Numbered from the stretch's first letter, positions 7,898 through 42,332 are shown. The stretch: 64,000 bases of DNA from Candidatus Aldehydirespiratoraceae bacterium (GCA_965198315.1 OZ240616.1:3465723-3529722), one strand, 5' to 3'. Notes: generated by a model from the sequence alone, not told the origin. Numbers and translations: made by a program.

Positions 7898-7927
7898 TGA
7901 GCGTGAAACCTGCATTCTGAGTCTCGC
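7898..7927 (+). repeat. Direct repeat copy A: relic 5' end of the 9498 gene
   Basis: tgagcgtgaaacctgcattctgagtctcgc, identical to 9499-9529 except one missing T. Confidence 0.9.
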
Positions 7928-8040
7928 GGGAAGAGCCGCATCTCTGCTAGCGTCTGGCTGCAGACATATGTCATCAAGATCAGGGTGCGCGAAATGATCT
8001 TGAGGAACCTTGAATTCGTCAACAATCCTGAGGGGTCGGA

Positions 8041-9477
8041 ATGCTCACGCGAATCGAGAATCAGTTCGAGCCGATGACCTCAACCTGGGGACAGCAATGG
8101 CTTGTCCGCCTGCGGACCGCCCTCGGAACCCTGTTGACGCTGAATTTTGTCGTGCTGTGGGCTGGCCCGTTCGTGATTCAAGGTCAGCTCTACAGACAAG
8201 GCTTGCATCGCGTATTGCGTCCCGTGCACCGTTTTCTGGACGGCTCACCCGCCCTACGGCGTTTCGCCGCCAAGCACATTTATCGCCGACCGGCACACGT
8301 CGACTATTTCGCAACGACGATTCTCTTTGTGTTCGCCTTCCTCGTGCCTCTCGGCGGCATATTCGCGCTGCAGATCGTCACCAAGTCGCTGCCGTGGTAC
8401 GTGGTCATTGCCTACTACTTCGTCTGGGTTGGACCGGGCGCGCGGTGTGTGGCGGCCGCATATACGTTCGCGCATCGTGAGGGACATTTGCCCGGCGGAA
8501 GGATGTACCGTCCTCGGATCGGGAACCGGGTTGGGAACGTTTTTGAGAACTGGATCGGCCCCTGGTACGGCACAGTCCCGTACAATTTCTCGACTTCCCA
8601 CCTCTTCCTGCATCACCGATTGAACGGTGGCAAGGGAGACCCGGTCTACCTATGGGACATTGACCGGACGAATTTCTGGGACCTAACGCGATACCAGTGG
8701 CGGTTCTTCCGATATATGACCGGCATCAGCAGCCTCGTGGAGTTTCGACGTGAGCGAGGAGTTCTGCCGGCTGTGGACCGGGCGCGCCGGACATTGATTC
8801 GAGGCATGGTCATCTACTGGGTTCTTGTGCCGGCAATCATTCTCACGCTATTGACGGCGACAGGGTCCAGCCTCTCCTCGGCTCTGCTCTTCCTGTTGCT
8901 CATTTACTTTCAACCCCTGTGCGCCATGTCCTCCTTCCTTTCGCTCATGAACCTCGGGTGGCATGGATTCCTCGAATTCGACGAAGCCGGACGGCATGTG
9001 AAACATGTAACCTCGGGGACGATTCTCGACGGGCCCGACGATTCCTACGGCGAGGACTACCACGTTGCCCATCATCATTTTCCCAGCATTGGTCACGACA
9101 GGCTGACCGAACACGTGGAGGCCGAACGGCAAGAATGGGGACGTTGCCATGGTTCGGTCTTTGAGAACACCACGATCCTGGAACTGGCTGTCATGATGAT
9201 TCTCGGCAGATTCGACTTCCTCATCCGCAACCACTACGTGGACTACTCGGAGGGGAACCTGTCCCAGGACGATCTCGCAGACTTGTTCGAACGTCGGGCG
9301 CAGCGCAAGGAGATGAGCTACGAGGAGTACGAGTTCGGTTATCTTCCGCGCTTGAGGGAGTCGGCTGAGGAACTCGTGAGCAGCGGAGTGTGCGTCAACG
9401 AGAACAGTGCGTACGTGTATCAAGCTCACCGCAACCTCCAGCGCGATCTGAGACTGCCGGCAGACACGTCTGCATAG
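8041..9477 (+). CDS. Membrane fatty-acid desaturase/hydroxylase superfamily protein
   Basis: Three His boxes HREGH, HLFLHH, YHVAHHH with intervening TM helices; RBS-like gagggg upstream. Confidence 0.8.
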   Translation: MLTRIENQFEPMTSTWGQQWLVRLRTALGTLLTLNFVVLWAGPFVIQGQLYRQGLHRVLRPVHRFLDGSPALRRFAAKHIYRRPAHVDYFATTILFVFAFLVPLGGIFALQIVTKSLPWYVVIAYYFVWVGPGARCVAAAYTFAHREGHLPGGRMYRPRIGNRVGNVFENWIGPWYGTVPYNFSTSHLFLHHRLNGGKGDPVYLWDIDRTNFWDLTRYQWRFFRYMTGISSLVEFRRERGVLPAVDRARRTLIRGMVIYWVLVPAIILTLLTATGSSLSSALLFLLLIYFQPLCAMSSFLSLMNLGWHGFLEFDEAGRHVKHVTSGTILDGPDDSYGEDYHVAHHHFPSIGHDRLTEHVEAERQEWGRCHGSVFENTTILELAVMMILGRFDFLIRNHYVDYSEGNLSQDDLADLFERRAQRKEMSYEEYEFGYLPRLRESAEELVSSGVCVNENSAYVYQAHRNLQRDLRLPADTSA

Positions 9478-9497
9478 CTGAGGAGCTTGCCCCAAGC

Positions 9498-10703
9498 GTG
9501 AGCGTGAAACCTGCATTTCTGAGTCTCGCCATTGTGGCGGCTCTGCTCGTTGGGGTCGCGGCCGGGACCGGCAGCTACCTGTTTCGCGATGAGCCACCTC
9601 TACCACCCTGTGACCTCCCGACATCAGCGGAACTGCATGAGGCGGTTGCTTCGAGCGCAGCGTGGATGGAACGCGCCCTCCAACCCAACAACCGGTTCTG
9701 GTACGAGTACGACCGCAGCACCGACACCTTTGCCAGCAACTACTTCGACGTTCGTCACGCCGGGGTGGTCATGTCGCTCTATCAGGTGGCCGCGACCGGT
9801 GATCTCAGTGTGCTCGAGACCGCGGACGGAGGCCTGCAGTACATCCTGGACAACCTCAACACAGTCGGGGACATCACCGCCTTCGACGACTATCGACGCG
9901 ATACCGATCTTGGATCAACCGCGCTGGCAGTCAACGCACTGGTGCACAGACGCATAGCCACCAACGACCAGGCATACGACGACCTGCTGCGAGCCATGGG
10001 GCGCTACATGCAATCGTTGCTGCGCCCCGACGGCGGCATGTGGTTCGGAGCGTTCAGCGATGGGCTCGAACCGATGGTGGGGCGCACGTCGACTTTCTAC
10101 ACAGGCGAAGCGTTCTGGGGGTTCGGGCTGTTGGCCAACCAGTTCCCAGGTGAAGGCTGGGACGACTCCGCCCGAGAAGTCGCCCACTATCTCGCAACGG
10201 CACGAGACGCAGAAGAAGGCATCGAGAACCCGCCGCTGGCCGACCAATGGGCTTCCTACGGATTCTCCGAGATGCGGACCTGGGGCGACCTCGCCGAGCC
10301 CGAACTCGCCTATGTCCGCTCGCTCAGCGAGGCTTACCACAAGCGCGTTGAACGCGAGATCCGGCGCGAGGCGTCCCGGGTGGGGGACGGAACCGAGCCA
10401 CCACGCGAGTCGGTTCGACAGTCCCGGGGGGCCGCCTTCGGCACCACTGTGGAGGCTCTCTCTGCTCTCTGGCGATTGAGCCGACAGGATCCCGGCATGG
10501 CCGACCTCGAGCCGCAACTGCGTCAGGACCTCCTCTGTGGCGCGGGGATCCTCGTCGCCCGCCAGTACGACACCGAACGGGCAGCGCCCTATGCTCGGCC
10601 CGACGTTGTCGAGGGCGCTTGGTACACCGACGATGTCACCCGCATGGACGATCAACAGCACGCCATGTCCGGTGTCGCTCTAGCTGTAGACGCGCTCGGC
10701 TAA
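9498..10703 (+). CDS. Membrane-anchored hypothetical protein, probable alpha/alpha-barrel fold
   Basis: GTG start after aggag; N-terminal TM anchor; conserved-looking motifs RHAGV, FYTGEA, RMDDQQHA. Confidence 0.7.
   Translation: MSVKPAFLSLAIVAALLVGVAAGTGSYLFRDEPPLPPCDLPTSAELHEAVASSAAWMERALQPNNRFWYEYDRSTDTFASNYFDVRHAGVVMSLYQVAATGDLSVLETADGGLQYILDNLNTVGDITAFDDYRRDTDLGSTALAVNALVHRRIATNDQAYDDLLRAMGRYMQSLLRPDGGMWFGAFSDGLEPMVGRTSTFYTGEAFWGFGLLANQFPGEGWDDSAREVAHYLATARDAEEGIENPPLADQWASYGFSEMRTWGDLAEPELAYVRSLSEAYHKRVEREIRREASRVGDGTEPPRESVRQSRGAAFGTTVEALSALWRLSRQDPGMADLEPQLRQDLLCGAGILVARQYDTERAAPYARPDVVEGAWYTDDVTRMDDQQHAMSGVALAVDALG
9499..9529 (+). repeat. Direct repeat copy B (functional 5' end of the 9498 gene)
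   Basis: tgagcgtgaaacctgcatttctgagtctcgc. Confidence 0.9.
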
Positions 10704-10715
10704 CCGGAACCTTCC

Positions 10716-11921
10716 CTAACCGGATCGATCGGAGACCAACTGGCGGTAGTACACCGCGCGAACCGCGAGCGCTTCACGGATCTCGCCGGTCATCTCCTCG
10801 GCGAACTCGGCTCGATATGAGGTGTCGGTCACGATCTGCACCGCGAACTGCAAGCCCGACAGAAGCCCGATGAAGACCGAGACCAGTACCAACTGTCGGC
10901 TGAATATGAGTTCAGCGCCCCACAGCGACCAACGTGACGCCCAGTCAGCGCTGCTTGTCAGCTCTGTCGCCGTGGTCCACTGCAACAACGTGTCCTCGCG
11001 AACTGTCAACAGACCGAACAACAAATAGAAGGCGGTGATCACCAACGCCACCAACAGGATTTGAATTGCTTGGGACGCGAACAGCAGCAGCGCAACGTTG
11101 TACTCGGCACGGCGGTGCAGCCTCGGCGCGTCGGGAGCGGGATCTTCATCGCTCGGCACCATCTGTTCGACCGGCGTGTCGACGCTGCGCACACGCACAT
11201 CGGACCAGCGTTCAAAACGAGCCAGATCGACTGTGAGCCGCCGCACCGACAGCATCACGAAACCCGAGCCGATGAACACGACCAGAACCGCTACCGCCGC
11301 AAAATACGGCAACGTGAAGTCGTTCGCCACCTGCCACATCTCCGCGTTCAGAAAGATGAAGGCCGAGAAGATCAACAGGATCGGCAACGACTTCATGGTC
11401 AGGTTCACAATGTCGCCGATCTGCGTCTTCAACTGCGAGACAGACCAGCGGACCATGGGCAGAAGCCCCCAGGAGGTCACCACGAAGGCGACGAGCAGAA
11501 CCAGCACATTGAAGACCACTACGACCAGAACGTTCTCCGCCACCGCGTTCTGCGAACCGATCGCAGTCGGGACTGCGGGCAACACCAGATACAGCACTAT
11601 CTCCAGCACTCCCACGCGGTCTGGGAGCTGAACCAGTCGACGTCCGCGGGTCCGGTTGATCAATGCGAACGCAGCAACTCCGAGGGCGACGCAACCGACG
11701 AAGACCGCGGCCTGCGCCCAGCCGGCCCAGCGGTCGCCGAATGCCAGGAACAACTCCAGGAACACCACGAATACGAGGAAGGGGAACATCCGGGTCAAGA
11801 CGTCTTCACGAACCGAATAGTGGTCGATCAGATGCGGAAGCCCGCGGCGTATGAACCAACGTTCGGTACGGTCACGATCCCGCTCAAGCTCGACGCTGCT
11901 CAATGAATCCTCACTAGCCAC
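10716..11921 (-). CDS. Integral membrane protein of unknown function
   Basis: Multiple TM helices, ERWFIRRGLPHLI motif; start placed at GTG 11921 just after the relic imuB stop (the ORF-track start at 12044 crosses the islet boundary). Confidence 0.75.
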   Translation of the reverse strand: MASEDSLSSVELERDRDRTERWFIRRGLPHLIDHYSVREDVLTRMFPFLVFVVFLELFLAFGDRWAGWAQAAVFVGCVALGVAAFALINRTRGRRLVQLPDRVGVLEIVLYLVLPAVPTAIGSQNAVAENVLVVVVFNVLVLLVAFVVTSWGLLPMVRWSVSQLKTQIGDIVNLTMKSLPILLIFSAFIFLNAEMWQVANDFTLPYFAAVAVLVVFIGSGFVMLSVRRLTVDLARFERWSDVRVRSVDTPVEQMVPSDEDPAPDAPRLHRRAEYNVALLLFASQAIQILLVALVITAFYLLFGLLTVREDTLLQWTTATELTSSADWASRWSLWGAELIFSRQLVLVSVFIGLLSGLQFAVQIVTDTSYRAEFAEEMTGEIREALAVRAVYYRQLVSDRSG

Positions 11922-11931
11922 TTCCGGCAAA

Positions 11932-11965
11932 GCTAATCCCAGATGGCGACAACACTCCATTGTCC
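11932..11965 (-). repeat. Direct repeat copy A: relic 3' end of imuB (GQWSVVAIWD*)
   Basis: gctaatcccagatggcgacaacactccattgtcc matches 13692-13725 at 32/34 positions. Confidence 0.92.
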
Positions 11966-12098
11966 GTCTGGCAAGACGGTCGAACGAGGCATACGCAGGA
12001 GCGCCGATTCCATCTTGATTACGCTCCTGCGCAAACTTGTGCATATGCGTAAATCGCCGGAATACCTTGTCCGGTCTTTCCCAGAGTTTGTCTGGCGG

Positions 12099-12124
12099 TG
12101 TCTGTCAGGCTAGACTGACAGACA
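12099..12124 (+). promoter_or_regulatory. Inverted-repeat operator overlapping a -10 box (TAGACT) and a leaderless start
   Basis: tgtctgtcag-gctaga-ctgacagaca with perfect 10-bp arms; TAGACT at 12111-12116; ATG at 12124. Confidence 0.75.
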
Positions 12125-12447
12125 TGAGCCTCCTAGCTCACGACCGCCTGCCGACAAAGCCGATCGAAGCACTGCGGGAGCTCGCGCTCGCCATCAACGA
12201 GTGCGACGATCTCAAGCGCCAGACGGTTGCTGCGGCCCGCGAGGCGGGCGCCACATGGGAGGCCATCGGTGAAGCCCTGGGCAGCACCCGACAGTCGGCT
12301 TGGGCGCTCTACTCAGCAGACGCTGCTGCTGCCAGTGCTGACCTCGCCGCGAGCGCATCGAGCAACGCAGACCTTTCTGAAGACGAAGCACTCGACATCG
12401 CTGTCGAGGAAGTACGCCAGGTCCGCAGAGCCCGCCGGGCACGCTGA
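12124..12447 (+). CDS. Putative HTH antitoxin
   Basis: AREAGATWEAIGEALGSTRQSAW helix-turn-helix; C-terminal LSEDEALDIAVEEVRQVR; directly upstream of a PIN gene. Confidence 0.75.
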   Translation: MSLLAHDRLPTKPIEALRELALAINECDDLKRQTVAAAREAGATWEAIGEALGSTRQSAWALYSADAAAASADLAASASSNADLSEDEALDIAVEEVRQVRRARRAR

Positions 12448-12456
12448 CCCAATCAG

Positions 12457-12876
12457 ATGCAAGTTGTGTTGGACGCGAACGTGTTCGTGTCCGCTGTGAT
12501 CACGGACGGCTCTCCGCACCGCATTCTCCAACGCTGGCTCCGACTCTCAGATTTTGAGATCATCGCTTGCCAACAGTTGCTGAGCGAAGTCCAGGAAGTC
12601 TTGACAACCCGACCTCGGGTGAGTCGGCGTGTCGACCAGAAACTCGCGAACAGGCTGATCTCGCACTTGACCACCGGAATCGGTCTCATGCCCGATCCCG
12701 CTGATGTTCAGCGGTGGACACGCGACGTCGACGACGACTACCTCGTAGCGCTCGCCAGAGAACACGGCGCCAACTACATCGTGAGCCGAGACAACGACCT
12801 CTTGGAATGGGAGGAGCAGGTACCCCCCGTGATCACTCCGTCAGAGTTCGAGATGATCTTGGGACCGATCCCCTAG
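12457..12876 (+). CDS. PIN-domain toxin (PIN_3 / putative TA toxin component)
   Basis: VVLDANVFVSA, RDVDDDYLVALA, IVSRDNDLL motifs. Confidence 0.88.
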   Translation: MQVVLDANVFVSAVITDGSPHRILQRWLRLSDFEIIACQQLLSEVQEVLTTRPRVSRRVDQKLANRLISHLTTGIGLMPDPADVQRWTRDVDDDYLVALAREHGANYIVSRDNDLLEWEEQVPPVITPSEFEMILGPIP

Positions 12877-12891
12877 CAATAGATCGCCAGT

Positions 12892-13014
12892 TCACTCAAG
12901 CAGCAGCGGCAGTTTGGGAGCGCAGGCGTGTTGCTGAGGAATCCCTGCAACTTGTGCCACGGCGCTGGCGTATCCCTCTATCTCGCCCTGGTTGTCGAGC
13001 ATGCGAAAGGTCAT
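12892..13014 (-). pseudogene. Truncated AbiEii-like nucleotidyltransferase toxin fragment
   Basis: ATGA-coupled to the upstream AbiEi-like gene; MTFRMLDNQGEIEGYASAVAQVAGIPQQH resembles an AbiEii N-terminus and breaks off before the expected EKD motif; stop after 40 codons. Confidence 0.55.
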
Positions 13015-13607
13015 GCTTGAAGCAACGCTTCCAGATGCTGCCAACGGGTGCGAGTGCCGACATGGTGTTCATCGTGAATCTGCTCAGCAATCGTGGGAAG
13101 CCGAATCTCGCCGTTTGCCACGAACTGCGCGAGAGCTGCCACGACACTGTCCCAGTCCGCCTCGACGAATCGGAGACCGTCGCGCAGCACTTCGATGACG
13201 GCGACTTCGAGGACGCGCAGCTTACGGATCCGACGCTCGACTGACCGCGCCACGAACTGGACACCTTGCGGGGGCGTCGGAGTGCGTCCTGGCACCGCGA
13301 CGACTTCCGTGGACGGAACCTGGCTGGTCAATCCCAGTGCCGCTGCGGCTGAGAACTCCGCCGGTCCGGCACCATCGCCTGCCACCTCCAGCCCGACCTG
13401 CATTGGCTGCGGGGCCGGAATGCCGGCTCGCGTACACAGCCCTTTCCAGTACAGCCCTTTGCGCACTCGCAACAGTTCGTTCCTCTCAACAAGACGCACG
13501 AATTCGCAGTCAACCGCATGTGGCGGTGCTTGCAGGTCGCTGCTGAATACAAACGAACGCGCTGGCATCTGCGCGACATGGTCACGAACTAGGCGGGCCG
13601 TGCTCAT
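13011..13607 (-). CDS. DUF6088 / AbiEi-like type IV TA antitoxin
   Basis: wHTH-like RLVERNELLRVRKGLYWKG, AAAALGLTSQVP motif; leaderless TACAAT -10. Confidence 0.75.
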   Translation of the reverse strand: MSTARLVRDHVAQMPARSFVFSSDLQAPPHAVDCEFVRLVERNELLRVRKGLYWKGLCTRAGIPAPQPMQVGLEVAGDGAGPAEFSAAAALGLTSQVPSTEVVAVPGRTPTPPQGVQFVARSVERRIRKLRVLEVAVIEVLRDGLRFVEADWDSVVAALAQFVANGEIRLPTIAEQIHDEHHVGTRTRWQHLEALLQA

Positions 13608-13691
13608 AAGAGGTTATTGTAGCGAAATCCTCTTAACTTCACCACGGCACGTTCGAGTACTTCGACGAAACGGGGATCTCAGACGGGCGAG

Positions 13692-13725
13692 GCTAATCCC
13701 AGATGGCGACAACGCTCCATTGGCC
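13692..13725 (-). repeat. Direct repeat copy B (functional 3' end of imuB)
   Basis: gctaatcccagatggcgacaacgctccattggcc. Confidence 0.92.
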
Positions 13726-15384
13726 TGACTCGAGAGCCACGAGGCGAGCCAGGCCGTCATCAGTGAGAAGTTGGAAGCGAGCCTGCCGACAACGTCGCTC
13801 ATCATCCCACCACCGCTCATAAACGGGCCACGGTCCGGCCCAGGCCACAACTTCACACGAGCGACCGTCGACCACCAACAAATGAGGAGCTGACGACACC
13901 CGTCCGCGGCCGCTGACCGCAACTGCTGAGCCGTCAGCGTCGAGCAACTCCACCGCACAAGGTGTCGACAGCACTCGAGCAGGTGAAGGGGCCGGAAGAG
14001 CCCCGGGCCAGGGAGCGACACCATCAGCACCTGCAGACCGCGGTGTGTCGGCCGCTGTCACCGACCTGCCCAGAAGCTCGACCTCAGCGGACGGAACCAA
14101 CCTCAGCTGCTCATTGTGATGGCGGCCACCGCCATACACAGGCACCAGAACCGCCTCAGCGCCCAGTTGTCCCTGCAGTCGAGCTGCAACACGCGCTGCC
14201 CGCCTGTCGATCTCGTTCGCGCTGCCGCTGCCCCAGAAGTCGAGTTGACAGCCGCCGGCCGCAACCACCTCCTGAGGCGCCAGAACCACTCGGGTAATAC
14301 CTCCGGTCGGCCGGTCTGTTGAACCACCTGCCCGTCCGCTCAGCCAACCATCGAGCTGCCATCTCACCCGGTCCGCTATCACCGCTGCCGACAACGCCCC
14401 TTCATGGCGCCAGACACGCACCATCGACTCGCCGTGCTCGGTCTCTGCCTCAATCGCGATACGGACACACTCCACCCCCTCTGATCTGAGCCGTTGATGA
14501 AGCTCGTCAGCCAACGAACGGGCACAGAAGGCAACCCGGTCGATGCGGTCTGCCGGAGGGTCGATCTCGCCGGCAACGGACCAGTCGGGTGGTGGCAGCC
14601 GTCCCTGCGGTGAGCGTTCGTCGAGGCCTCTGGCGAGACGATGGGCGCTCACCCCCTCATTGCCGAAGCGGGCCAGGACATCTGCAGTCTTCAGAGCAGC
14701 GAAAGCTCCGAGAGTGCCCAGGCCGAGCCGTGCCAATACCTCAGTCAACCCGGAGCCGTCAGCTGACCCGGAGCCATCAGACAGCCCAGAGCCACTGGAC
14801 AGCCCGGAGCCAAGTTCGCGACGACCCAGCACCGAGATCGGCATTGGTGCCAGAAACTCAGGGCTGTGGCCGGGTTCAACGATTCGTACCGGGTCGGCGG
14901 ATCGCGCCGCCAACGAAGCTGCAAACGGCCCATCAGCGATCCCCACACGAACCACACCCGCACACGCACCCTCTGGACCACTTGCGACTAGATCATCAAT
15001 GACTGCACCCGTTCGAGCAAGGACCAGCTCAACCAGCGCGACTTCACCCCCGAAATATCGGGCTGGACCACGGGTGACGAACGCACAGGTCCCCGGACGT
15101 GTGACCTCGACCCCCGGCGTCACATCGTCGAGTGCGCCAAGGACAGGCTCAAAGGTCCGCGCCTCGCGGTCCAGTTCACGTTCGCGAACCTTGAGTTCGA
15201 CACAGCGGGCCTGCGCCACCCGCCTACGGAGCCCGCGGACAACCCCATACTCTCTGGCCGCCGGCGAGGCGGCCACAACACGGTTGGCGTAAACCACCGC
15301 CACTGGTTCATCAAGCGGGCAACCCAGAGCAACCACCGGCCAATCAGGGCACCACACCACCAAAGTCCGCACAGCCACAGTCAC
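13693..15384 (-). CDS. imuB: ImuB, inactive Y-family DNA polymerase of the mutasome
   Basis: RTLVVWCPDWPVVA N-terminus, ARYFGGE, GIADGPFAA, DRVRWQLDGWL, QLDFW clamp-binding motif, WAGPWPVYERWW; GTG start at 15384. Confidence 0.9.
   Translation of the reverse strand: MTVAVRTLVVWCPDWPVVALGCPLDEPVAVVYANRVVAASPAAREYGVVRGLRRRVAQARCVELKVRERELDREARTFEPVLGALDDVTPGVEVTRPGTCAFVTRGPARYFGGEVALVELVLARTGAVIDDLVASGPEGACAGVVRVGIADGPFAASLAARSADPVRIVEPGHSPEFLAPMPISVLGRRELGSGLSSGSGLSDGSGSADGSGLTEVLARLGLGTLGAFAALKTADVLARFGNEGVSAHRLARGLDERSPQGRLPPPDWSVAGEIDPPADRIDRVAFCARSLADELHQRLRSEGVECVRIAIEAETEHGESMVRVWRHEGALSAAVIADRVRWQLDGWLSGRAGGSTDRPTGGITRVVLAPQEVVAAGGCQLDFWGSGSANEIDRRAARVAARLQGQLGAEAVLVPVYGGGRHHNEQLRLVPSAEVELLGRSVTAADTPRSAGADGVAPWPGALPAPSPARVLSTPCAVELLDADGSAVAVSGRGRVSSAPHLLVVDGRSCEVVAWAGPWPVYERWWDDERRCRQARFQLLTDDGLARLVALESGQWSVVAIWD
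14749..14812 (-). repeat. In-frame 18-bp tandem repeat (4 copies) in imuB encoding a Gly/Ser linker
   Basis: ccc(g/a)gagcc at 14749, 14767, 14785, 14803; GSGLSSGSGLSDGSGSADGSG. Confidence 0.85.
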
Positions 15385-15541
15385 ACCGCCGACGCATCGC
15401 AGTGCACAGCCACGGTCACACCGTCGGCACATCGGAGTGCACAGGCACATCGCACACCGCCGGCACATCGCAGTGCGCGGGCGTATCGCAGTGCACAGGC
15501 ACATCGCAGTGCACAGACACATCGCAGTGCGCGGGCGTATC
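15381..15541 (-). repeat. 18-bp tandem repeat array at the imuA'/imuB junction
   Basis: Unit about cacatcgcagtgcacagg; encodes DTPAHC DVSVHC DVPVHC DTPAHC DVPAVC DVPVHS; the GTGA junction is duplicated at 15419 and 15384. Confidence 0.9.
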
Positions 15542-16240
15542 AAGGAGCATCGGCGCACCATCGGGACCGGGGAGAAGAAACGAGACAGCTCTTGGTCTTG
15601 CGGCCGCGCCACGTCCTTGAGTGCACACCTCCACCCTCCTTGAACGCAGAAGGCCATGGCCGGATCCGAGCCCCGACCATTGCGATGCCACCACCCGAAC
15701 TCCGACATCAACGCCCGGCCCTCTGCTGGATCCGATCTGACTGGACTCAATCTGGCTGGACCCGATCTGTATCAGCACCGATCCGCTCTCCCGAAGACGA
15801 GCTGACAGACGACGAAGATCAGCGGGACGAAACCGCAGACCCGGCCCGACCATCACCACATCGACAGCACCGATGAGAGCCGCTACGACTCCGACGTTGG
15901 TCGAAGGATCAAGGGGACTGACGACCAGCAGTCGTTCAAGGGCGATTCCCGCCTCAGCTGCAGCCGCAAGCCCCAGCCCCTCAGCCCCCACAAGAGCAGT
16001 CCACGATCCGGCCTGCGAGGGACCCGCCGCCAGTACCAGAGACAGCGACGTTGCACCGATGCCGTTGACCGCGACCGTGGTCCCACGCTGAAGCGACCCA
16101 CCGACAAAGAGCTCGGAGACGGCCGGAAGAAGCGGCAATGTGCGTTGGTGAGCCAACGCCAGGGGTGCCACCCTGTCAGCGACGAGCTGCAGACGGGCTC
16201 GGCGATCAACCTGTGACTCTGCAGTTGCTGTTGCTGCCAT
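15416..16240 (-). CDS. imuA: ImuA' (RecA-like mutasome accessory protein)
   Basis: RTLPLLPAVSELFVGGSLQRGT, GLAAAAEAGIALERL, RRLSARLRESGSVL, WSGLGSGHGLLRSRRV; upstream of imuB, with SOS box. Confidence 0.88.
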   Translation of the reverse strand: MAATATAESQVDRRARLQLVADRVAPLALAHQRTLPLLPAVSELFVGGSLQRGTTVAVNGIGATSLSLVLAAGPSQAGSWTALVGAEGLGLAAAAEAGIALERLLVVSPLDPSTNVGVVAALIGAVDVVMVGPGLRFRPADLRRLSARLRESGSVLIQIGSSQIESSQIGSSRGPGVDVGVRVVASQWSGLGSGHGLLRSRRVEVCTQGRGAAARPRAVSFLLPGPDGAPMLLDTPAHCDVSVHCDVPVHCDTPAHCDVPAVCDVPVHSDVPTV

Positions 16241-16250
16241 CAGTTCAGTA

Positions 16251-16266
16251 TCGAACATATGTTCGT
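16251..16266. promoter_or_regulatory. LexA (SOS) box
   Basis: TCGAACATATGTTCGT versus actinobacterial consensus TCGAAC-N4-GTTCGA; 10 bp upstream of the imuA' ATG, overlapping a GATACT -10. Confidence 0.9.
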
Positions 16267-16336
16267 GTTCTGCAACTCGGCAAGCGCCAGAATGAGTCAA
16301 TCGACATTCTCTGAATAGTTAGATATACTCATTGTT

Positions 16337-16983: not shown

Positions 16984-17022
16984 CGCCTCGTCAGATGACG
17001 TGGGAACATCAACTGGGGACTT

Positions 17023-33604: not shown

Positions 33605-33699
33605 GCAATTTACCCCCTACAGCCCATTTTTGAACACCAAGTCAGATTGGGACGCAGTGACGGCACCGTGGGCACGCCGTCATCAACCGAGTTGCCTGC

Positions 33700-34896: not shown

Positions 34897-34935
34897 CGAC
34901 TATCCCAACGTCGTCAACGGCAACCGCCAAGATCA

Positions 34936-36402
34936 TCAACCCATCCAGTTGATCGACTGCAACTCGCTGTACGCCTCAATGCCCCACTTGCCACGGTCGC
35001 GACCCACACCACTCATCTTGAAGCCACCAAACGGCGCCTCCATGTGGGGTTGAATCAAGTTGATCCCCACACAGCCCGATTCGAGCTGCGAGGCGAGAGC
35101 GTAGGCGCGTTTCGTGTCACCCGAGAAGACATAACTGTAGAGCCCGTAGTCAGAGTCGTTGGCAAGTTGTACTGCCTCTTCTTCGTCACCGTAGGGCATG
35201 ACCACGATGACCGGGCCAAAAGCCTCTTCACGAACCACATGCATGTCCGGGGTGCAATCGGCAAGCAGGGTCGGCGCGATGAAATAGCCGGGAAGGTCGG
35301 GGCGGTCTCCGCCGCAAACCAACCTCGCCCCGGCGTCGACACCGGATTGGATGAACTGCTCGACGCGGTCGCGGTGAAGTTCGGTGATGACCGGGCCGAT
35401 GATCGTGGATCGATCTGTCGGATCACCAACCTTCATGAATCCCGAAAATGTGTTGAGCGTCTCAACTAGTTGGTCGTAGACATCGCGATGGGCGATCACC
35501 CGGGTCGGCGCAGTGCATATCTGGCCTGCGTGGAAACCCCAGACCGTAGCTATCGCTTGCGCCGCTGTCCCCAAATCGGCGTCTTCGGTGACGATCGCGG
35601 CACCCTTGCCTCCAAGCTCCATCAACAGACGCTTCATGGTCTTGCCACCGTTCTCCATGATCTTGGCACCCACCGGGGACGAACCCGTGAACGAGATCAT
35701 GTTGACGTCTGTCGAGTCGACCAGGGCGGCGGGCACATCGGGGCGAGAACCGTTGACGATGTTGATCACACCGGCGGGGAAACCGGCGGCTTGAGCAGCT
35801 TCGCCGACTAACAGGATTCCGAGCGGGTCCTGCGGCGCCGGTTTGATAACGGTGGTGCATCCCGCAGCCAACGCCGGAGCGATCTTGCCTGCGACGTTGG
35901 TGACAGGAAAGTTGTAGGGCGTGATAGCAGCGACAACACCGACGGGCTGGCGCTTGACTTGGGCGCTCAACAGCCCGGCGGGACCCAGCGGACTTTCTGC
36001 GGTAGGGATCGGCGCCAGGCTCTCGTCGAGATTGATGGGCTTGGCGTAATAACGGAAACGATCGACTGCGGGTCCTCCGACCTGCAGAGTCTCGGTGGTG
36101 CCGATGGTGGCGCCGGTCTCTGCTTGAACCGTTGCGACCCAATCTGGTGACCGCTTCTCAATCTCTTCACCGAGTCGACCAATACAGGCGCAGCGTTCTT
36201 CGCGGCTGAGCTTCTTCCAAGCGGGTAGCGCCGCTTTGGCCGCAGCGGCCGCATCGTCAGCCTGCGCGACGCTAGCTTCGGGCGCCCGCCCAACCACTTT
36301 GGTGGTGTGCGGGTCGATTATGTCGTAGTGCCCCGCACCGGGTTCGACCCATCCTCCGTTGATCAACAACCGCCAGTTCTTGTCGACATCAATCATGCTC
36401 AT
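34936..36402 (-). CDS. Aldehyde dehydrogenase
   Basis: ITPYNFP, FTGS, MELGGK, GQICTA, EEAFGPV, PFGGFKMSG. Confidence 0.93.
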   Translation of the reverse strand: MSMIDVDKNWRLLINGGWVEPGAGHYDIIDPHTTKVVGRAPEASVAQADDAAAAAKAALPAWKKLSREERCACIGRLGEEIEKRSPDWVATVQAETGATIGTTETLQVGGPAVDRFRYYAKPINLDESLAPIPTAESPLGPAGLLSAQVKRQPVGVVAAITPYNFPVTNVAGKIAPALAAGCTTVIKPAPQDPLGILLVGEAAQAAGFPAGVINIVNGSRPDVPAALVDSTDVNMISFTGSSPVGAKIMENGGKTMKRLLMELGGKGAAIVTEDADLGTAAQAIATVWGFHAGQICTAPTRVIAHRDVYDQLVETLNTFSGFMKVGDPTDRSTIIGPVITELHRDRVEQFIQSGVDAGARLVCGGDRPDLPGYFIAPTLLADCTPDMHVVREEAFGPVIVVMPYGDEEEAVQLANDSDYGLYSYVFSGDTKRAYALASQLESGCVGINLIQPHMEAPFGGFKMSGVGRDRGKWGIEAYSELQSINWMG

Positions 36403-36576
36403 GGCCCCAAACGTTACCTTCGACGTCCCCCACACCCCTAAGTGAGTCCTCGGTGGCCCGTTGGCAGATCCTCAAGCTTGTTAGATCCTGTCCCAATGTC
36501 GTGAGTCGTTGTGGTCACGTCTAGCCTCAGCAACAGTCCAATTTGTCCAACAGCCAGTCTGTTCAGAGGAACCGCA

Positions 36577-37776
36577 ATGCCTGAAGCCGTAATCGTCGCC
36601 ACTTCCCGTACACCTATCGGTCGGGCCAACAAGGGTTCGCTCATCGACGCTCGCCCCGACGACATGTCGTCGTTCATCCTCAGTGATGTTATGAGCAAGG
36701 CTGGAGTCGAGGCTTCCGACGTCGAAGACGTGATCTGGGGGATCGGCCAACCTGGGGGCGAGGGGGGTTACAACATCGCCCGGGTCATCTCCGCCATGGG
36801 CGGCCTCGACATTCCAGGCGTCACTGTCAACCGTTACTGCTCCTCCTCACTGCAGACGATTCGCATGGCCGCGCACGCGATCAAGGCCGGTGAGGGCGAT
36901 TGTTTCGTGGCAGGCGGGGTGGAGACCGTGAGCCGCTACATGTTTGGCGCCGCGGATTCCGGCCCCCACAATGAGAAGTTCGCTGACGCCGAGGAACGCA
37001 GCGCGTCCCGCACCGGCGAGGGGTCAGCGACTTGGACCCCGCCTGAGGGGCTCCCCGACATCTACATCGCCATGGGCCAGACTGCCGAGAACGTGGTGCA
37101 GGCGACCGGGATCAGCCGTCAACGCCAGGACGAATGGGGTGTCAGTTCCCAGAACCGGGCCGAAGCCGCTCTGAACCGCGGCTTCTTTGAACGTGAGATC
37201 ACCCCGTACACGCTGCCCGACGGAACAGTTGTAGCCAAAGACGACAGTATCCGCGCCGAGACGACCATCGAGAAGGTGTCGCAGCTCAAGCCGGTGTTCC
37301 GGCCCGACGGCACAGTCACTGCGGGCAATGCCTGCCCGCTCAACGACGGCGCGGCCGCGGTGGTCGTCATGAGCGACACCAAGGCAAGGGCGATGGGCAT
37401 CGAGCCCCTTGCTCGCATCGTCTCGAGCGGCGTGTCGGCGCTGCATCCCGAAATCATGGGCCTCGGTCCGATCGACGCTTGTCGCCAGGCCTTGGGTCGT
37501 GCCCAGATGACCATCGACGACATCGACCATGTGGAGATCAACGAGGCGTTCGCCGTGCAGGTTCTAGGTTCAGCCGACGAACTCGGTATCGACCTCGACG
37601 TCCTCAATCCCAACGGTGGAGCGATTGCGCTCGGTCACCCGTTCGGGATGACCGGCAGCCGCATCATGACCACCCTGCTCAACGGCCTCGAAGACTCCGA
37701 CTCCACGATCGGCATGGAGTCGATGTGCGTCGGCGGCGGTCAGGGCATGGCCATGATCGTTGAACGACTCAACTGA
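36577..37776 (+). CDS. Acetyl-CoA C-acyltransferase (thiolase)
   Basis: NRYCSSS, NEAFA, GHPFGMTG, CVGGGQG; RBS gagga. Confidence 0.93.
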   Translation: MPEAVIVATSRTPIGRANKGSLIDARPDDMSSFILSDVMSKAGVEASDVEDVIWGIGQPGGEGGYNIARVISAMGGLDIPGVTVNRYCSSSLQTIRMAAHAIKAGEGDCFVAGGVETVSRYMFGAADSGPHNEKFADAEERSASRTGEGSATWTPPEGLPDIYIAMGQTAENVVQATGISRQRQDEWGVSSQNRAEAALNRGFFEREITPYTLPDGTVVAKDDSIRAETTIEKVSQLKPVFRPDGTVTAGNACPLNDGAAAVVVMSDTKARAMGIEPLARIVSSGVSALHPEIMGLGPIDACRQALGRAQMTIDDIDHVEINEAFAVQVLGSADELGIDLDVLNPNGGAIALGHPFGMTGSRIMTTLLNGLEDSDSTIGMESMCVGGGQGMAMIVERLN

Positions 37777-37813
37777 ACCGAACTGAACAAGCTGCGCACA
37801 GGAGGGCACAACC

Positions 37814-38887
37814 ATGTCAGAGAACGTTGCACTACCAGGAAAGCTCGGTGATCCGGCCCGGACTCTGGGAACAGATCCCCGCGCGGATTCACGCATGGTG
37901 GCCGCACTGGCACAGCTGGGGATGGCGGGTGAGCCCGAGCCGCTTCCGCTCACCGCTGATGCATCGGCTACCGAGATCTACGACTTCACCGCGGTTATCG
38001 AACCGGGTTTCGAGATGTTGTTCGACATGATCTACGCAGACCTCCCGGCTGTGCAGGGTGTGGAGTCACGTACGGAGGTCATTTCCGGGGTTGACGGCAA
38101 CGACATCAGCCTCTACATCCATCAGCCGGTTGGCGGCAGCGGCGATCCAAGGCCCTGCATTCTGCACATCCACGGCGGGGGCATGGTGATCCTCAAGGCC
38201 TCCGGAGCCTCCTACCGGCGCTGGCGCGACGAACTCGCCGCTCTTGACCTTGTGGTCGTCGGCGTGGAGTTCCGCAACGCCGGCGGCGCGCTGGGCCCCC
38301 ACCCGTTTCCGGCGGGATTGAACGACTGCACCTCGGCGCTGGAGTGGGTGCATGCCAACGCCGCTGAACTGGGAGTGTCGAAGATCGTGGTGTCCGGCGA
38401 GTCCGGAGGGGGGAACCTGACGCTGGCCACGACGCTCAGAGCCAGTCGCGAGGGGCGCCTGCACATGATCGACGGCGTCTACGCGCAGTGTCCATACATC
38501 TCCGGCGCCTACGGGAACCCGCCCATGGAGTTGACCTCGCTCCACGAGAACGACGGGTACTTTCTGGGCAGCGAGATGATGGACGTCATGGTGCGCGCCT
38601 ACGACCCGAGCGGCGAGAACCTCGCGAATCCGCTGGCCTGGCCGCTGAACGCCGAGATCGAAGACCTCGAGGGTCTGCCCCCGCACGTGATCTCTGTGAA
38701 CGAACTCGATCCCCTCCGCGACGAGGGTCTGGCCTACTTCCGCAAGCTCACGAAGGCGGGTGTGACGGCCAACAGCCGCACGGTCAACGGTACCTGCCAC
38801 GCGGGCGACGTGATCTTCCGGGGAGCGATCCCCGAGGTCTACGCGGCCTCAGCGCGCGACCTCTCAGCCTTCGCCCACAACTGTTAG
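37814..38887 (+). CDS. Alpha/beta hydrolase (HSL-family esterase)
   Basis: HGGG, GESGG, DPLRDEG, catalytic His in TCH; RBS aggagg. Confidence 0.9.
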   Translation: MSENVALPGKLGDPARTLGTDPRADSRMVAALAQLGMAGEPEPLPLTADASATEIYDFTAVIEPGFEMLFDMIYADLPAVQGVESRTEVISGVDGNDISLYIHQPVGGSGDPRPCILHIHGGGMVILKASGASYRRWRDELAALDLVVVGVEFRNAGGALGPHPFPAGLNDCTSALEWVHANAAELGVSKIVVSGESGGGNLTLATTLRASREGRLHMIDGVYAQCPYISGAYGNPPMELTSLHENDGYFLGSEMMDVMVRAYDPSGENLANPLAWPLNAEIEDLEGLPPHVISVNELDPLRDEGLAYFRKLTKAGVTANSRTVNGTCHAGDVIFRGAIPEVYAASARDLSAFAHNC

Positions 38888-38905
38888 CGCCGAGAACGCT
38901 GGGGT

Positions 38906-39502
38906 TCAGTCGGCGGGATGGTTGACCAGGTGCATGGCGGCGTTGTCGAAGTGATCGAACATGGCGTCCCGTATTTCGGCCGGTAAGGGGCGGTCCGTAC
39001 CGTCGGCGAGAGTGGCGACGCCGAGCGATGCTGTCATGTGCTTCATCCAGGCATCGCGTTCGGCTATTCCGATGACGAAGGGCATGTGGCGCATCCCCAG
39101 ACGGGGATGGCCCCGCTGCTCGCTGTAGTGCGCAGGCCCTCCCCAGTACTGCGCCAGGAAACCGGCGAGGCGCTGGCGGGACGGACCCATGTCGGCTGGA
39201 TACATCGGCCGCAGCAGCGCGTCGGTCTCCACCGCGTCGTAGAACCGGCCGACCAACTCGTCGAAGAAGCGCTGCCCGCCGACTGCTTCATAGACCGTCG
39301 GCGGGGCCTGAACGGCTTCACGCATGGCACCCTTCAGGCTCACCGTTCCCGGCGACACCCAGCGTCGCCGGCCTCGATCCCCGGAGTCCACCGATTCTGT
39401 GGAGTCGACGGTGTGCCCCGAGTCGATGTCATTGACGAATTTCTCAGAGTGATCCCCCGAATCGAACCAAGATTGTTCGGCGTTCGGCGATCCTTTGGTC
39501 AC
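38906..39502 (-). CDS. glbO: Group II truncated hemoglobin with N-terminal low-complexity extension
   Basis: YEAVGG..FFDELVGRFY, FLAQYWGGP..YSEQRGHPRLGMRH, ERDAW. Confidence 0.85.
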   Translation of the reverse strand: MTKGSPNAEQSWFDSGDHSEKFVNDIDSGHTVDSTESVDSGDRGRRRWVSPGTVSLKGAMREAVQAPPTVYEAVGGQRFFDELVGRFYDAVETDALLRPMYPADMGPSRQRLAGFLAQYWGGPAHYSEQRGHPRLGMRHMPFVIGIAERDAWMKHMTASLGVATLADGTDRPLPAEIRDAMFDHFDNAAMHLVNHPAD

Positions 39503-39739
39503 ATCCTCAGGCTAGACGCCAATTACTCTTGAGCACACTCGGACATGGCCGGTTGAGGACCGGACCAGCCGACTCAATGGATGTCAAGACAGGGAATCCA
39601 GAAGCAAACAACGACAATGCCACACCAGGGCCACCAACAAGGCAAAGGGGCACCTCACACTAGTGGTGCGTCGACTTCCTCGCTGACCACGCAGCCGGCC
39701 AACAGGACTAGCGCTGCAACGCACGCTGGTAACCTGGGG

Positions 39740-39997
39740 TCACGCACCAGTCGAGACCGGTTCGCTTGTCGCGGCCTGCTCCGCTCGCCAACGACGCTTA
39801 GCCCGAAAATGCAGCACCACCGTAACAGCCAAAACGGCGAGGCTCACCCCGAGAATCAGACGCTGTGTAAAGGGTGAAACTCTTGGAATCACCACAACGA
39901 ACGCCGCGCCCCACGCGGCGAGCTCAAGATGTTCGCGCAAAGGGCGCTTTAGGATCGGGCGCGTGTCAAAGAACTTGGGTTCACTGTCGCTAGTCAT
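39740..39997 (-). CDS. Small two-TM membrane protein (hypothetical; possible immunity partner)
   Basis: TAATG-coupled to the upstream secreted gene; two hydrophobic segments followed by a basic tail. Confidence 0.6.
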   Translation of the reverse strand: MTSDSEPKFFDTRPILKRPLREHLELAAWGAAFVVVIPRVSPFTQRLILGVSLAVLAVTVVLHFRAKRRWRAEQAATSEPVSTGA

Positions 39998-40536
39998 TAG
40001 TCATAGGGCCCCGGGATAAGATAAACAACTGTATCCTCAGTGTGGCACCGCTGCTGAATGTCTATCTCACCTGCGCCAACACCCGTTAAAGCGGCAGCCA
40101 CTCTTGCGGCCCGAGTGGTAGGGAAGTAACCGAGGGAAAAACCACCGGCCCTAACGAACCACCTGCAGACCGTTTCATTGACGTGGTAATGCGGGTTGGG
40201 CGCTGTGGGGCGTCTCCATTCCGTATGGCACACCTCTTCTTGGTCCCATCGCCAACCGTAGACGGGCCATGGCCCAACCACCCATCGAGGCTCGGGCTCG
40301 GCGTTCGGGAAGTAACGCGAAGTCTCCCAGTCAACGATCTTGTAAACATAATTCCATTCGAGGGTGCAAACACTCACTGGGATTAGAGGGACATTCAGCG
40401 TCACTGTCAGAGGGTGCGCGCTGGCTTCTTCGACCTCCAGGCTGAGAAGCGCTGGAACCCCCGCCGTTGGTGCCAGCGCCAACGACATGGCGATAACAAC
40501 CGCTGCGAGCGGAACGGCCAAAATCTTCCGAAACAT
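39997..40536 (-). CDS. Secreted hypothetical protein (Trp/Tyr/Pro-rich, 4 Cys, Gly/Ala-rich C-terminal segment)
   Basis: Strong RBS gaaggag; signal peptide with probable ASA-H cleavage site. Confidence 0.7.
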   Translation of the reverse strand: MFRKILAVPLAAVVIAMSLALAPTAGVPALLSLEVEEASAHPLTVTLNVPLIPVSVCTLEWNYVYKIVDWETSRYFPNAEPEPRWVVGPWPVYGWRWDQEEVCHTEWRRPTAPNPHYHVNETVCRWFVRAGGFSLGYFPTTRAARVAAALTGVGAGEIDIQQRCHTEDTVVYLIPGPYD

Positions 40537-40859
40537 GAATTTCTCCTTCGATTATGTGAGTAATCGGAGGTCTGGCCTTATGCCCGTGCTGAACATCTGT
40601 GTCCACACCGGGGAACACCCAGCAGCGGTCCTCGCCGTCGCGCTGAACCGCTCACGATTGTCCGACAATGCCGCTTGCCGAATGGCCGTTGCGGTGACCT
40701 GTTGCTTGGACCGACGAAGGAGGGTGACAGTCGATGGTGGAGTTTCTGACACCGAATCTAGTTCACGTCGCAAAACTGGGTGCGTCGCAACAGGTCCAGT
40801 GACGGAGACTCAGTTCTACCGGAACGCGGTGGGCGGGGATGTCGAGGATCATCCAACGA

Positions 40860-41666
40860 TCAGGGATCGAACCAGAGGCGGGCAGTGGTTCCCCCCAGGA
40901 CGGCTGCTCGGGTGGCTGCGTCGAGTCCGCTGAGCGCGTCGCCGACAAGGGTGACCAGTTCGGGGTAGGCGCGATAATGCACTTGGGGGTGGTCCGATCC
41001 CCAAACAATGCGCTCGGCACCGAACAAGTCGACCAGTCGCAATACCGCTGAGCCCGGGGACAGGGCGGCAGCGTCGAATACTCCGGTGCTCAGCTTGACG
41101 ACCAGATTCTCGTAGCCGGCTAAATCAGCGAGCGCACGATCTTCACCCCCGAGAGACACAAAACCACAGTGTTCGAGCGCTATCTCACAGTCGGGCACCG
41201 CCGCGGCAATACGGGCGACCGCCGGCAGTTCCTCGGCGAAACAGCAGACGCTCGGGCCGACGCCCGAGTCTGCGCAGTGCTGCACCAGATCCACGGCAAC
41301 ATCGCTGTCAAGCCAAGGGTCGGAGATCGAGAACAACCTCAGTCCCGAGGCCCCCTGCGCCACAGCCCCCTCCAGCAGGCTCAGCGGGTCTTCAACCGTC
41401 GAACCCACCGCGACCATGGCCCGCCAGTCGTCCCCGAGCGCCTCAGCCGCTCGCAGAACCAGCGAGTTGTCAAAACCGTGCGCGCCAACTGCCTGGACCA
41501 GCACGCCACCGGAGACACCCGCTGCGGTTACTCGGCCTGCTACCGCCTCCGGCCCACAGTCGAACTCCGTCCACCAGCGGGCGTTGGGGTTGCCCGTCAG
41601 GTCGTCCACACACGTCTCGCGGTCGACCACGTGCAGGTGTGCGTCCAGCACACGGTTCACAGTCAC
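40860..41666 (-). CDS. Amidohydrolase family protein (lactonase-like)
   Basis: LDAHLHV, VLVQ, LEHCG, VKLS, WGSDHP; start uncertain (ORF-track start at 41981 overlaps relB). Confidence 0.82.
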   Translation of the reverse strand: MTVNRVLDAHLHVVDRETCVDDLTGNPNARWWTEFDCGPEAVAGRVTAAGVSGGVLVQAVGAHGFDNSLVLRAAEALGDDWRAMVAVGSTVEDPLSLLEGAVAQGASGLRLFSISDPWLDSDVAVDLVQHCADSGVGPSVCCFAEELPAVARIAAAVPDCEIALEHCGFVSLGGEDRALADLAGYENLVVKLSTGVFDAAALSPGSAVLRLVDLFGAERIVWGSDHPQVHYRAYPELVTLVGDALSGLDAATRAAVLGGTTARLWFDP

Positions 41667-41763
41667 CAGGTCATCATCGGCATCACCCACCACCAAACCG
41701 TACCCAAGACCCTCCCGGTAGCATTCTTGGAGCGACCGGACTCGAGGGCGCGTGCTGACTGAT

Positions 41764-41806
41764 ACTCCAGATCGGGTCCGCTTGGGCCCGACAGGTCTCG
41801 CAGCCC
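41764..41806 (+). repeat. Direct repeat copy A: relic 5' end of the MFS gene
   Basis: 43 bp actccagatcgggtccgcttgggcccgacaggtctcgcagccc, identical to 42290-42332. Confidence 0.95.
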
Positions 41807-41877
41807 CGCCCGACAAACCTTCCCTTGAGTGTTCCTCATTTGTGGTACACTCTCGGGTCAACACAGGAGGGCACAGG

Positions 41878-42132
41878 ATGGCCAAAACCGAAATGATCCG
41901 AGCCCGTGTAGAGCCAGATCTGAAGGTGCAAGCCGAGCGCGTCCTTCGTGAACTCGGTTTGTCGGCCACCGACGCGATCACCCTGTTCTACAAGCAGGTA
42001 GTCCTACGCCAAGGTGTTCCTTTTGATCTCAGCATCCCCAACGCTGAAACCGTCGAAGCCCTGCGCCAGGCGCGGGAGCCCGATGAATTGACCGAGTATC
42101 CGAGCATCAACGAACTCAAAGCCGCCCTGTAG
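41878..42132 (+). CDS. dinJ: RelB/DinJ family antitoxin
   Basis: MAKTEMIRARVEPDLKVQAERVLRELGLSATDAITLFYKQV...PFDLSIPNAET; RBS aggagg; extended -10 TGgTACACT at 41843-41851. Confidence 0.9.
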   Translation: MAKTEMIRARVEPDLKVQAERVLRELGLSATDAITLFYKQVVLRQGVPFDLSIPNAETVEALRQAREPDELTEYPSINELKAAL

Positions 42133-42137
42133 CCCCG

Positions 42138-42182
42138 GTGATTCTCCGGACAACGAATCGCTTCAAGAAGGTCAGACGCTGA
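42138..42182 (+). pseudogene. Truncated YafQ/RelE toxin 5' fragment
   Basis: GTG 5 nt after the antitoxin stop: (M)ILRTTNRFKKVRR*, resembling the YafQ N-terminus (TxxFKKD). Confidence 0.55.
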
Positions 42183-42289
42183 TGCTTGCATCACATGCGA
42201 CCATGTCACCGACGGCCCGTCGGCAAGGTTGCTCGACAGACCGTTAGCATTCTCAAGGTGCCAGAACTCGCGGGTGCCTTCTGACTGAA

Positions 42290-42332
42290 ACTCCAGATCG
42301 GGTCCGCTTGGGCCCGACAGGTCTCGCAGCCC
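42290..42332 (+). repeat. Direct repeat copy B (contains TTG start of the MFS ORF)
   Basis: Identical to 41764-41806. Confidence 0.95.

Follow-up and report, generated by a model that had tools for sequence, protein, structure and literature searches.

The genome of a Candidatus Aldehydirespiratoraceae bacterium (GCA_965198315.1, here G000) is 4.21 Mb in size with 61% G+C and is 96.6% complete. We analyzed a stretch of 64,000 nucleotides (nt) from it (OZ240616.1:3465723-3529722; the window, to which coordinates without a prefix refer), in which three islets of accessory genes are each enclosed by a pair of direct repeats. The pairs lie where the original prediction, made from the sequence of the window, had placed them, and two extend further than first described. 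The copies of pair 1 (7898-7927 and 9499-9529) agree at 30 of 31 positions, as two exact blocks of 19 and 11 positions separated by a one-base indel; a relic longer than 31 nt was considered and rejected, as the extension score of 14 is not significant against a shuffle mean of 15.3. Pair 2 (11926-11965 and 13686-13725) spans 40 nt, of which 90% are identical, and identity reaches 97% in a core of 31 nt. Pair 3 (41715-41806 and 42241-42332) spans 92 nt at 85% identity, of which the first 49 nt (segment A) are about 71% identical and the last 43 nt (segment B) are identical. Every repeat had been described as the start or stop region of an adjacent gene. This holds for repeat 1, a gene start, and for repeat 2, a gene stop; repeat 3 is the entire intergenic region between the divergent amidohydrolase and MFS transporter genes and also covers 25 nt at the start of the MFS reading frame.

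We predict the functions of the cargo from Pfam and PADLOC scans (Table 1). Along with a desaturase gene, islet 1 holds that gene's own upstream region and a GAGGAG ribosome-binding site that serves the gene downstream. In islet 2, the region of the AbiEi antitoxin gene (12929-13755) is 91-92% identical to copies in two relatives (G001 and G003), both of which have an AbiEii toxin gene next to it. The islet-2 antitoxin has lost its toxin partner, as in islet 3, where relatives have 235 nt more and one (G017) encodes an intact 88 amino acid YafQ (PF15738, E 1.6e-33). The inserts are 0.43-1.7 kb in length, and no mobility gene was found in any of the three with Pfam and PADLOC.

Table 1. Genes, cargo, and repeat copies of the three islets and their neighbors in the window
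Feature	Position	Strand	Remarks
Islet 1, left neighbor, ABC transporter gene	5971..7842	-	PF00664 and PF00005; divergent from target gene
Islet 1, relic of the target gene's first 31 nt	7898..7927	+	one-base deletion leads to a stop after 7 codons
Islet 1, cargo 1	7928..9497	+	single fatty-acid-desaturase-family gene, 8041-9477; PF00487
Islet 1, intact target gene	9498..10703	+	no Pfam family; repeat copy 9499-9529 is its first 31 nt
Islet 2, gene downstream of the ImuB-like gene	10716..12044	-	no Pfam/PADLOC family; contains repeat copy 11926-11965 in its 5' region
Islet 2, cargo 2	11966..13685	both	107 amino acid open reading frame, PIN/VapC-like toxin, orphan AbiEi antitoxin
Islet 2, 107 amino acid open reading frame	12124-12447	+	in cargo 2
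Islet 2, PIN/VapC-like toxin gene	12457-12876	+	PF13470/PF01850
Islet 2, orphan AbiEi antitoxin gene	13011-13607	-	PADLOC AbiEi, E 1e-43
Islet 2, IMS (ImuB-like) gene	13693-15750 (with repeat, 13686..15750)	-	PF00817; last 10 codons and stop are repeat copy 13686-13725
Islet 3, left neighbor, amidohydrolase gene	40860..41696	-	PF04909; start from our own gene caller
Islet 3, left repeat copy	41715..41806	.	A1 (41715-41763) like empty-site genomes; B1 (41764-41806) identical to B2
Islet 3, cargo 3	41807..42240	+	RelB/DinJ antitoxin and truncated YafQ
Islet 3, RelB/DinJ antitoxin gene	41878-42132	+	PF04221
Islet 3, YafQ toxin remnant	42138-42182	+	first 11 codons; cut by a 235-nt deletion at 42171
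Islet 3, right repeat copy	42241..42332	.	A2 (42241-42289) 71% identical to A1; B2 (42290-42332) perfect, overlaps MFS start
Islet 3, right neighbor, MFS transporter gene	42308..43585	+	PF05977/PF07690; native-type from ~42321 (sliding identity)

The start of the gene at 10716..12044 is uncertain (ATG at 12044, ATG at 11960, or TTG at 11930). Most congeners retain the repeat copy within it, together with roughly 80-100 nt of the sequence beyond.

The comparison set comprises 17 congeners, which are metagenome-assembled genomes titled Candidatus Aldehydirespiratoraceae, and thus 18 genomes including G000. Based on rpoBC identity, G000 belongs to clade A with five close relatives (97-98%; G013, G015, G017, G012, and G011). 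Intermediate genomes are 89-92% identical (G002, G010, G006, and G005), those of the distant clade C are 85-87% identical (G016, G001, G007, G009, G003, and G014), and G004 and G008 are more remote than clade C. Empty sites in relatives, which had been proposed as a check, were found for all three islets, each with a single repeat copy. Islet 1 is empty in 8 of the 17 congeners (G003, G009, G010, G011, G012, G013, G015, and G017), and there the one copy is the true start of the gene, at the position that the relic occupies in G000. Cargo 1 is present in 3 of the 18 genomes (G000, G001, and G016), G007 has kept both repeat copies around a deleted cargo, and we left the state unassigned in six congeners. 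The islet-2 site is empty with a single copy in G016, and a 3.1-kb contig of a public run (X4) joins 11954 to 13715; in G011 two repeat copies are just ~197 nt apart. Islet 3 is occupied in G017, G001, G007, and contig C4 of G003 and is empty with a single copy in nine aligned genomes (G002, G005, G006, G009, G010, G012, G013, G015, and G016). Judged by coordinates, the site also looks empty in G014 and in contig C1 of G003, a genome with 10% contamination in which both states are seen.

Such a pattern could also arise if the cargo were ancestral and the empty sites were deletions between the direct repeats, with nothing inserted. Deletion between direct repeats of 30-90 nt leaves one copy, as is seen at the empty sites, and G007 shows that loss of cargo 1 is possible. 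We nevertheless consider this explanation highly improbable. It leaves the origin of the repeats unexplained, and it does not sit well with the restriction of cargo 1 to so few genomes, its absence from all five of the closest rpoBC relatives, and its nearest relatives in other phyla. Cargo 3, moreover, is far more alike between clades than are core genes.

The islets are not an artifact of assembly, a concern that had been raised with the original prediction: independently assembled genomes (G001, G016, and G017) have the same architecture, and contigs from public runs, which may represent the source sample, span the islet junctions. At the read level, the evidence consists of assembled contigs of these runs, with no weight given to uncovered parts in run X4 or to the runs with a small share (X1-X7). 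Three runs (X8-X10) contain the stretch, and in these the contig depth over the flanks of islets 1 and 2 (7717-7933, 11623-12056, and 13576-14000) is 2-3 times that over the cargo. The excess depth suggests co-occurring strains with empty sites or other cargo. At 11976 and 13664, contigs depart from the reference and continue as different sequence, which is expected where such strains have other cargo.

Islet 3 shows how a finished islet may move between species. Its cargo is 98% identical to that of G017 and 95% identical to that of G001, versus 87% for rpoBC. The cargo junctions are identical in all aligned occupied genomes (G000, G017, G001, and contig C4 of G003; G007 is more diverged). 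The A2 relic does not differ among the occupied genomes, is of the clade-C type, and moves with the cargo, and A1 resembles the empty-site genomes. On the right-hand side, the switch from donor-like to native-like sequence falls within B2 based on sliding identity. These breakpoints would fit a single crossover of a circular unit (cargo, A2, and B) in the conserved 43-nt B core, as in the earlier proposal that small circles are inserted by single crossover, and would also fit flank crossovers in an unsampled donor. At the cargo ends (41807-41818 and 42229-42240) there is also an 11-nt direct near-repeat (9 of 11 positions) that resembles a string in the B core and is likely due to chance. A shared end motif was considered, as a CGACAG-like string occurs at the cargo-3 ends and at the left end of the AbiE cassette (discussed below); it is absent at other cassettes and was treated as chance.

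Islet 1 entered G000 on more than 3 kb of homologous sequence from a lineage of a distant clade that already carried it, because the left side is like that of clade C and the sequence from 10800 is identical to that of a clade-A relative. Over 6800-7800, within the ABC transporter gene, G000 and the clade-C genome G001 are 93-100% identical, and over cargo 1 they are 82-95% identical; G000 is 99% identical to the clade-A genome G013 over 10700-10800 and 100% identical from 10800 onward. The sequence that follows the left relic is common to G000, G001, and G016. The relic region itself is only ~66% identical among these genomes, which points to an old scar. The closest relatives of the cargo-1 desaturase outside the genus are in other phyla (54-67% identity), and the founding insertion therefore could not have used homology.

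The islet-2 site is a hot spot for defense genes at which insertions stack. Most other congeners have 6-15 kb of different cargo there, including GmrSD, a DUF4143 ATPase with a 1388 amino acid protein, AbiEii, and a DNA methylase. In G003 (L056) and G009 (L058), three copies of the ImuB-end repeat split two blocks of defense cargo, and the relics are 127 and 211 nt in length; across the genomes, ImuB-end relics at this site range from 40 to 211 nt. The relic in G009 is nearest to that genome's own gene (93%), which we judged to be uninformative regarding the donor. G000 and G013 have flanks that are 97-100% identical at this site and cargo that differs.

The three islets are part of a wider pattern in the genome. 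Of isolated close repeats that are at least 22 nt long and separated by 100-6000 nt, G000 has 54 in direct orientation versus 7 inverted, where the 54 include short-period repeats inside genes. As anticipated, close direct repeats are enriched at gene ends: 28 of 60 isolated pairs (at least 25 nt, spaced 300-6000 nt) touch a gene end versus 16.4 expected from 2000 random placements, and both arms are at gene ends in 10 of the 60 versus 1.9 expected. Single-copy empty sites were found for six of seven islets tested, the further ones being an AbiE islet, a toxin-antitoxin cluster, and an MttB/MFS islet. A DUF4143 islet with a 63-nt repeat was rejected as a clean case, given that its left copy is part of a 105-nt sequence with further copies elsewhere. 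The cargo between further pairs includes AbiEi/AbiEii (124-nt repeat), a three-unit cluster of small toxin-antitoxin genes (75 nt), Fic, a second PIN gene, and an OLD/Gabija-like ATPase. Metabolic or regulatory cargo was also found: a two-component system with a ferric reductase and a hydroxylase/GH3/racemase operon. The metabolic operons were checked for flanking repeats and not for empty sites.

The genome also contains a dispersed repeat of ~135 nt, with a copy downstream of rpoC at G000:C1 ~917960-918098 (L065:160-298) and a ~50-nt core that is up to 100% identical. There are many copies in every genome of the genus, and the rpoC-downstream copy is absent from the five closest relatives, in which the flanks are contiguous.

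The same cassette can occur at different sites. Copies of the AbiE cassette at three loci are 87-89% identical. In G000 its neighbors are genes for a methyltransferase and a Leu/Phe-tRNA transferase, and the duplication measures 124 nt. The copies in G001 and G007 occupy two further loci, where the duplications are 71 and 175 nt, respectively; G000 has the single-copy target at the G001 locus. The promoter-side end is identical to the base in four of five contexts, and the opposite end varies by 10-60 nt. A 569-nt RelE-like cassette has the same asymmetry, with a promoter-side end that is fixed in at least four contexts and a 3' side that is nested or variable. Three toxin-antitoxin cassettes are arranged head to tail at G000:C1 427735-429756 (L041:11735-13756), two of them without a spacer. 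Each stands alone elsewhere in relatives at 93-98% identity, again with fixed promoter-side ends and nested 3' ends. At G000:C1 421601-422948 (L041:5601-6948) is an insertion sequence of the IS481 family (rve, LZ_Tnp_IS481); its terminal inverted repeats are perfect over 22 nt, and G000 has at least nine copies. An end of this type of element abuts a toxin-antitoxin cassette in G017 and G011.

These cassettes raise the possibility of a host-driven or trans-acting insertion system that delivers toxin-antitoxin and defense cassettes with defined ends to unrelated sites, by a chemistry that makes duplications of 30-175 nt. The exact promoter-side ends of the AbiE and RelE-like cassettes, the cassettes that abut exactly in the array, and the one cassette with three duplications at three sites would all be expected of such a system. 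We found no candidate enzyme for it, and no motif is common to the ends of different cassettes. Some of the contexts may stem from later insertions beside a fixed junction (an IS481-family end abuts one), and no repeat flanks the RelE-like cassette within 1.5 kb at nine other loci in eight other genomes. We regard the system as unlikely. An equally low probability is given to the more general proposal that discrete toxin-antitoxin and defense units in this Acidimicrobiia genus, with one fixed and one variable end, are inserted without a recombinase encoded in cis and with duplication of 30-175 nt. If true, fixed-end cassette insertion would be a new transposition-like pathway, and it could underlie the 25-year-old puzzle of long target duplication (discussed below).

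The sequence comparisons also bear on whether the islets are decayed integrase-borne islands or non-autonomous elements mobilized in trans, in which case the repeats would be attL and attR sites that rebuild a gene end and the toxin-antitoxin genes would persist by resisting deletion. The lengths of the repeats are within the range of att duplications, and in other genomes the AbiE and RelE-like cassettes lie 45-150 nt from tRNA 3' ends. Elsewhere in G000, one repeat pair of 49 nt has a tyrosine integrase gene beside it, and an integrase-type element is marked by a direct repeat of 353 nt (85%, G000:C1 3973379-3976515) with a tyrosine integrase match (3973734-3974120) just inside it. However, all 15 tyrosine integrase matches in G000 (PF00589) are far from the three islets and the validated islets, and none was found in the 6-15 kb islet-2 cargo of the five relatives searched (G013, G012, G017, G003, and G009). 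The six serine recombinase matches (PF00239), searched in G000 alone, are likewise far from these islets, and the window contains no tRNA. The three repeat pairs are unrelated in sequence and share no core; one cassette has three different duplications at three sites, and relics at a single site range from 40 to 211 nt. This explanation appears quite unlikely.

A separate stretch of 4.75 kb in G000 is bracketed by a perfect 64-nt direct repeat (G000:C1 1831802-1831865 and 1836554-1836617). The repeat has the appearance of a 5' tRNA gene half, and the stretch is similar to classical islands that target a tRNA, which makes it a useful contrast to the islets.

The absence of a shared repeat sequence, a tRNA, and an integrase, transposase, or terminal inverted repeat inside the islets, as first noted, was thus borne out. 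For the cargo ends, end-to-end alignment scores of 13-14 compare with shuffle means of 12.7-13.0, and 149-246 of 500 shuffles reached the observed score, so no terminal inverted repeats are evident. Regarding an integron array, no PF00589 match lies by the islets or by the cassette array at 427-430 kb. A reverse-transcriptase route was rejected: the single RVT_1 match is far from the islets, and the polarity of fixed and variable ends is unlike simple target-primed reverse transcription. A ComEC-like gene is present in G000, which is uninformative on competence.

When both ends of a staggered double-strand break are filled in, the segment between the nicks is duplicated, and Ku/LigD end joining could have captured a foreign fragment at such a break. 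Ku (PF02735) was not detected in the 96.6%-complete G000, although a Ku-bearing control genome scored, and overhangs of 30-175 nt would be far beyond those known for the pathway. We consider this exceedingly improbable.

Taken together, the observations lead us to favor, with some reservation, a history in two stages, an illegitimate founding event followed by spread through homologous recombination. In the first stage, a rare illegitimate event would occur at a replicating chromosome. Its likeliest form would be a template switch onto foreign DNA and a return to the original template a few tens of bases before the site at which it was left; the same result would follow if the foreign DNA were joined to two sister copies with breaks at staggered positions. 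Selection would retain only products in which the boundary is duplicated and not deleted. In the second stage, ordinary homologous recombination carries the islet and its relic copy from one species of the genus to another. The exchange uses long flanks or the conserved repeat core, in the latter case by a Campbell-type crossover of a circularized unit of repeat and cargo. The outcome is presence/absence polymorphism, swaps of cargo, stacking at hot spots, and later decay, such as loss of a toxin.

The original prediction had proposed a general, sequence-independent route that preserves the target gene. The analysis supports a recurrent pattern that lacks integrases, does not depend on the target sequence, and leaves the neighboring genes intact, based on the excess of repeats at gene ends, the empty sites in relatives, and the AbiE cassette at three sites. 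A process of this kind was already published (discussed below). Homology-anchored uptake with one illegitimate junction, one of the mechanisms suggested at the time, cannot on its own yield a duplication within one recipient molecule, and the present copies can be accounted for without it.

Several points weigh against the two-stage history. Its second stage is largely shown by the comparisons, whereas the first is one that we infer. The fixed promoter-side ends of the cassettes in four contexts are unexpected under random illegitimate joining. The lack of Ku removes classical end joining and does not thereby indicate template switching. Gene starts and ends come from our own crude codon-usage gene caller, and some of the empty sites could be secondary deletions between repeats. 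With respect to the Campbell route, the breakpoints of islet 3 would fit an unsampled donor and two flank crossovers equally well, given that the amidohydrolase flank of G000 and G017 is itself unusual, being unlike that of other clade-A genomes (85-88%). Among the assembled contigs of public runs there was no circle, tandem junction, or back-joint. Of the junctions that had been proposed as a check, the contigs contain the islet-2 empty junction (run X4) and no junction of an excised circle.

The islets have features in common with several known systems. IS1634-family insertion sequences also make long and variable target duplications of tens to hundreds of bases. However, these and other DDE transposons have their own transposase and terminal inverted repeats, both of which the three islets lack. 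Integrase-mediated islands that rebuild the end of their target gene share the direct repeats at a gene terminus and the intact target gene, but here there is no integrase in the occupants examined, no tRNA target, and no common core. Defense hot spots without integrases exist as accessory-gene sites driven by recombination, and the "minimal mobile elements" of Neisseria (Saunders and Snyder 2002) are said to be hot spots of this kind between core genes. The islet-2 site is similar, with near-identical flanks and different defense cargo in close relatives; such hot spots are not known to have duplicated gene ends around each cassette. Campbell-type integration gives the same order of homologous segment, cargo, and homologous segment, and islet 3, with a donor-type A2, a differing A1, an identical B, and a breakpoint in B2, resembles its product. 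Unlike the founding event that we propose, it requires homology on the incoming DNA and cannot found a new site.

The closest match is insertion with long target duplication, of which the islets are an instance. The earliest record is reportedly that of Nobusato et al. 2000 (Gene 259:99). Passages of Furuta, Abe and Kobayashi 2010 (PMC2853133) define the process for restriction-modification genes, as an insert of less than 20 kb without mobility genes, flanked by repeats of more than 30 bp up to ~400 bp that align to a single copy at the empty site. According to the same passages, the repeats occur nowhere else in the genome and extend over the 3' ends of genes, and cases come from many phyla, including an actinobacterium. 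The mechanism is there described as not known, with a proposed link to DNA breakage by restriction enzymes, and one figure legend refers to a Mycoplasma transposon with long repeats. A passage in a review (PMC3874152) restates the process. In a full-text literature search, we did not find toxin-antitoxin cargo with such repeats described among the titles listed, although the cases in Figure S7 of PMC2853133 may include examples other than restriction-modification genes.

Insertions of this type have been on record since 2000 without a mechanism and have been tied to restriction enzymes that break DNA; the range of cargo is now wider. The genus supplies many comparable dated events, such as one cassette at three sites, stacked relics, and breakpoints inside repeats. 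Across a pangenome, such events could separate template switching, staggered joining, and homology-driven integration. For annotation, the process accounts for short "orphan" copies of gene starts and ends beside accessory genes.

Like the published cases, the three inserts are shorter than 20 kb, contain no mobility gene, and are absent from relatives with aligned flanks, where the repeats collapse to a single copy. Repeats of more than 30 bp that align to one empty-site copy enclose islets 2 and 3 (40 and 92 nt), and pair 1 is borderline. The published cargo consists of restriction-modification genes. Here there are no restriction and modification genes in the cargo, which is a feature of the Furuta screen and not of the mechanism, and we find instead toxin-antitoxin, defense, and metabolic genes that cut no DNA. 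The same scars around cargo that does not cut DNA argue that the process is independent of DNA-cutting cargo. What appears to be new compared with the published system is these types of cargo, the recurrence of a single cassette at three sites, the spread of finished islets between species by homologous recombination with breakpoints in repeats or flanks, and the stacking of insertions at one hot spot.

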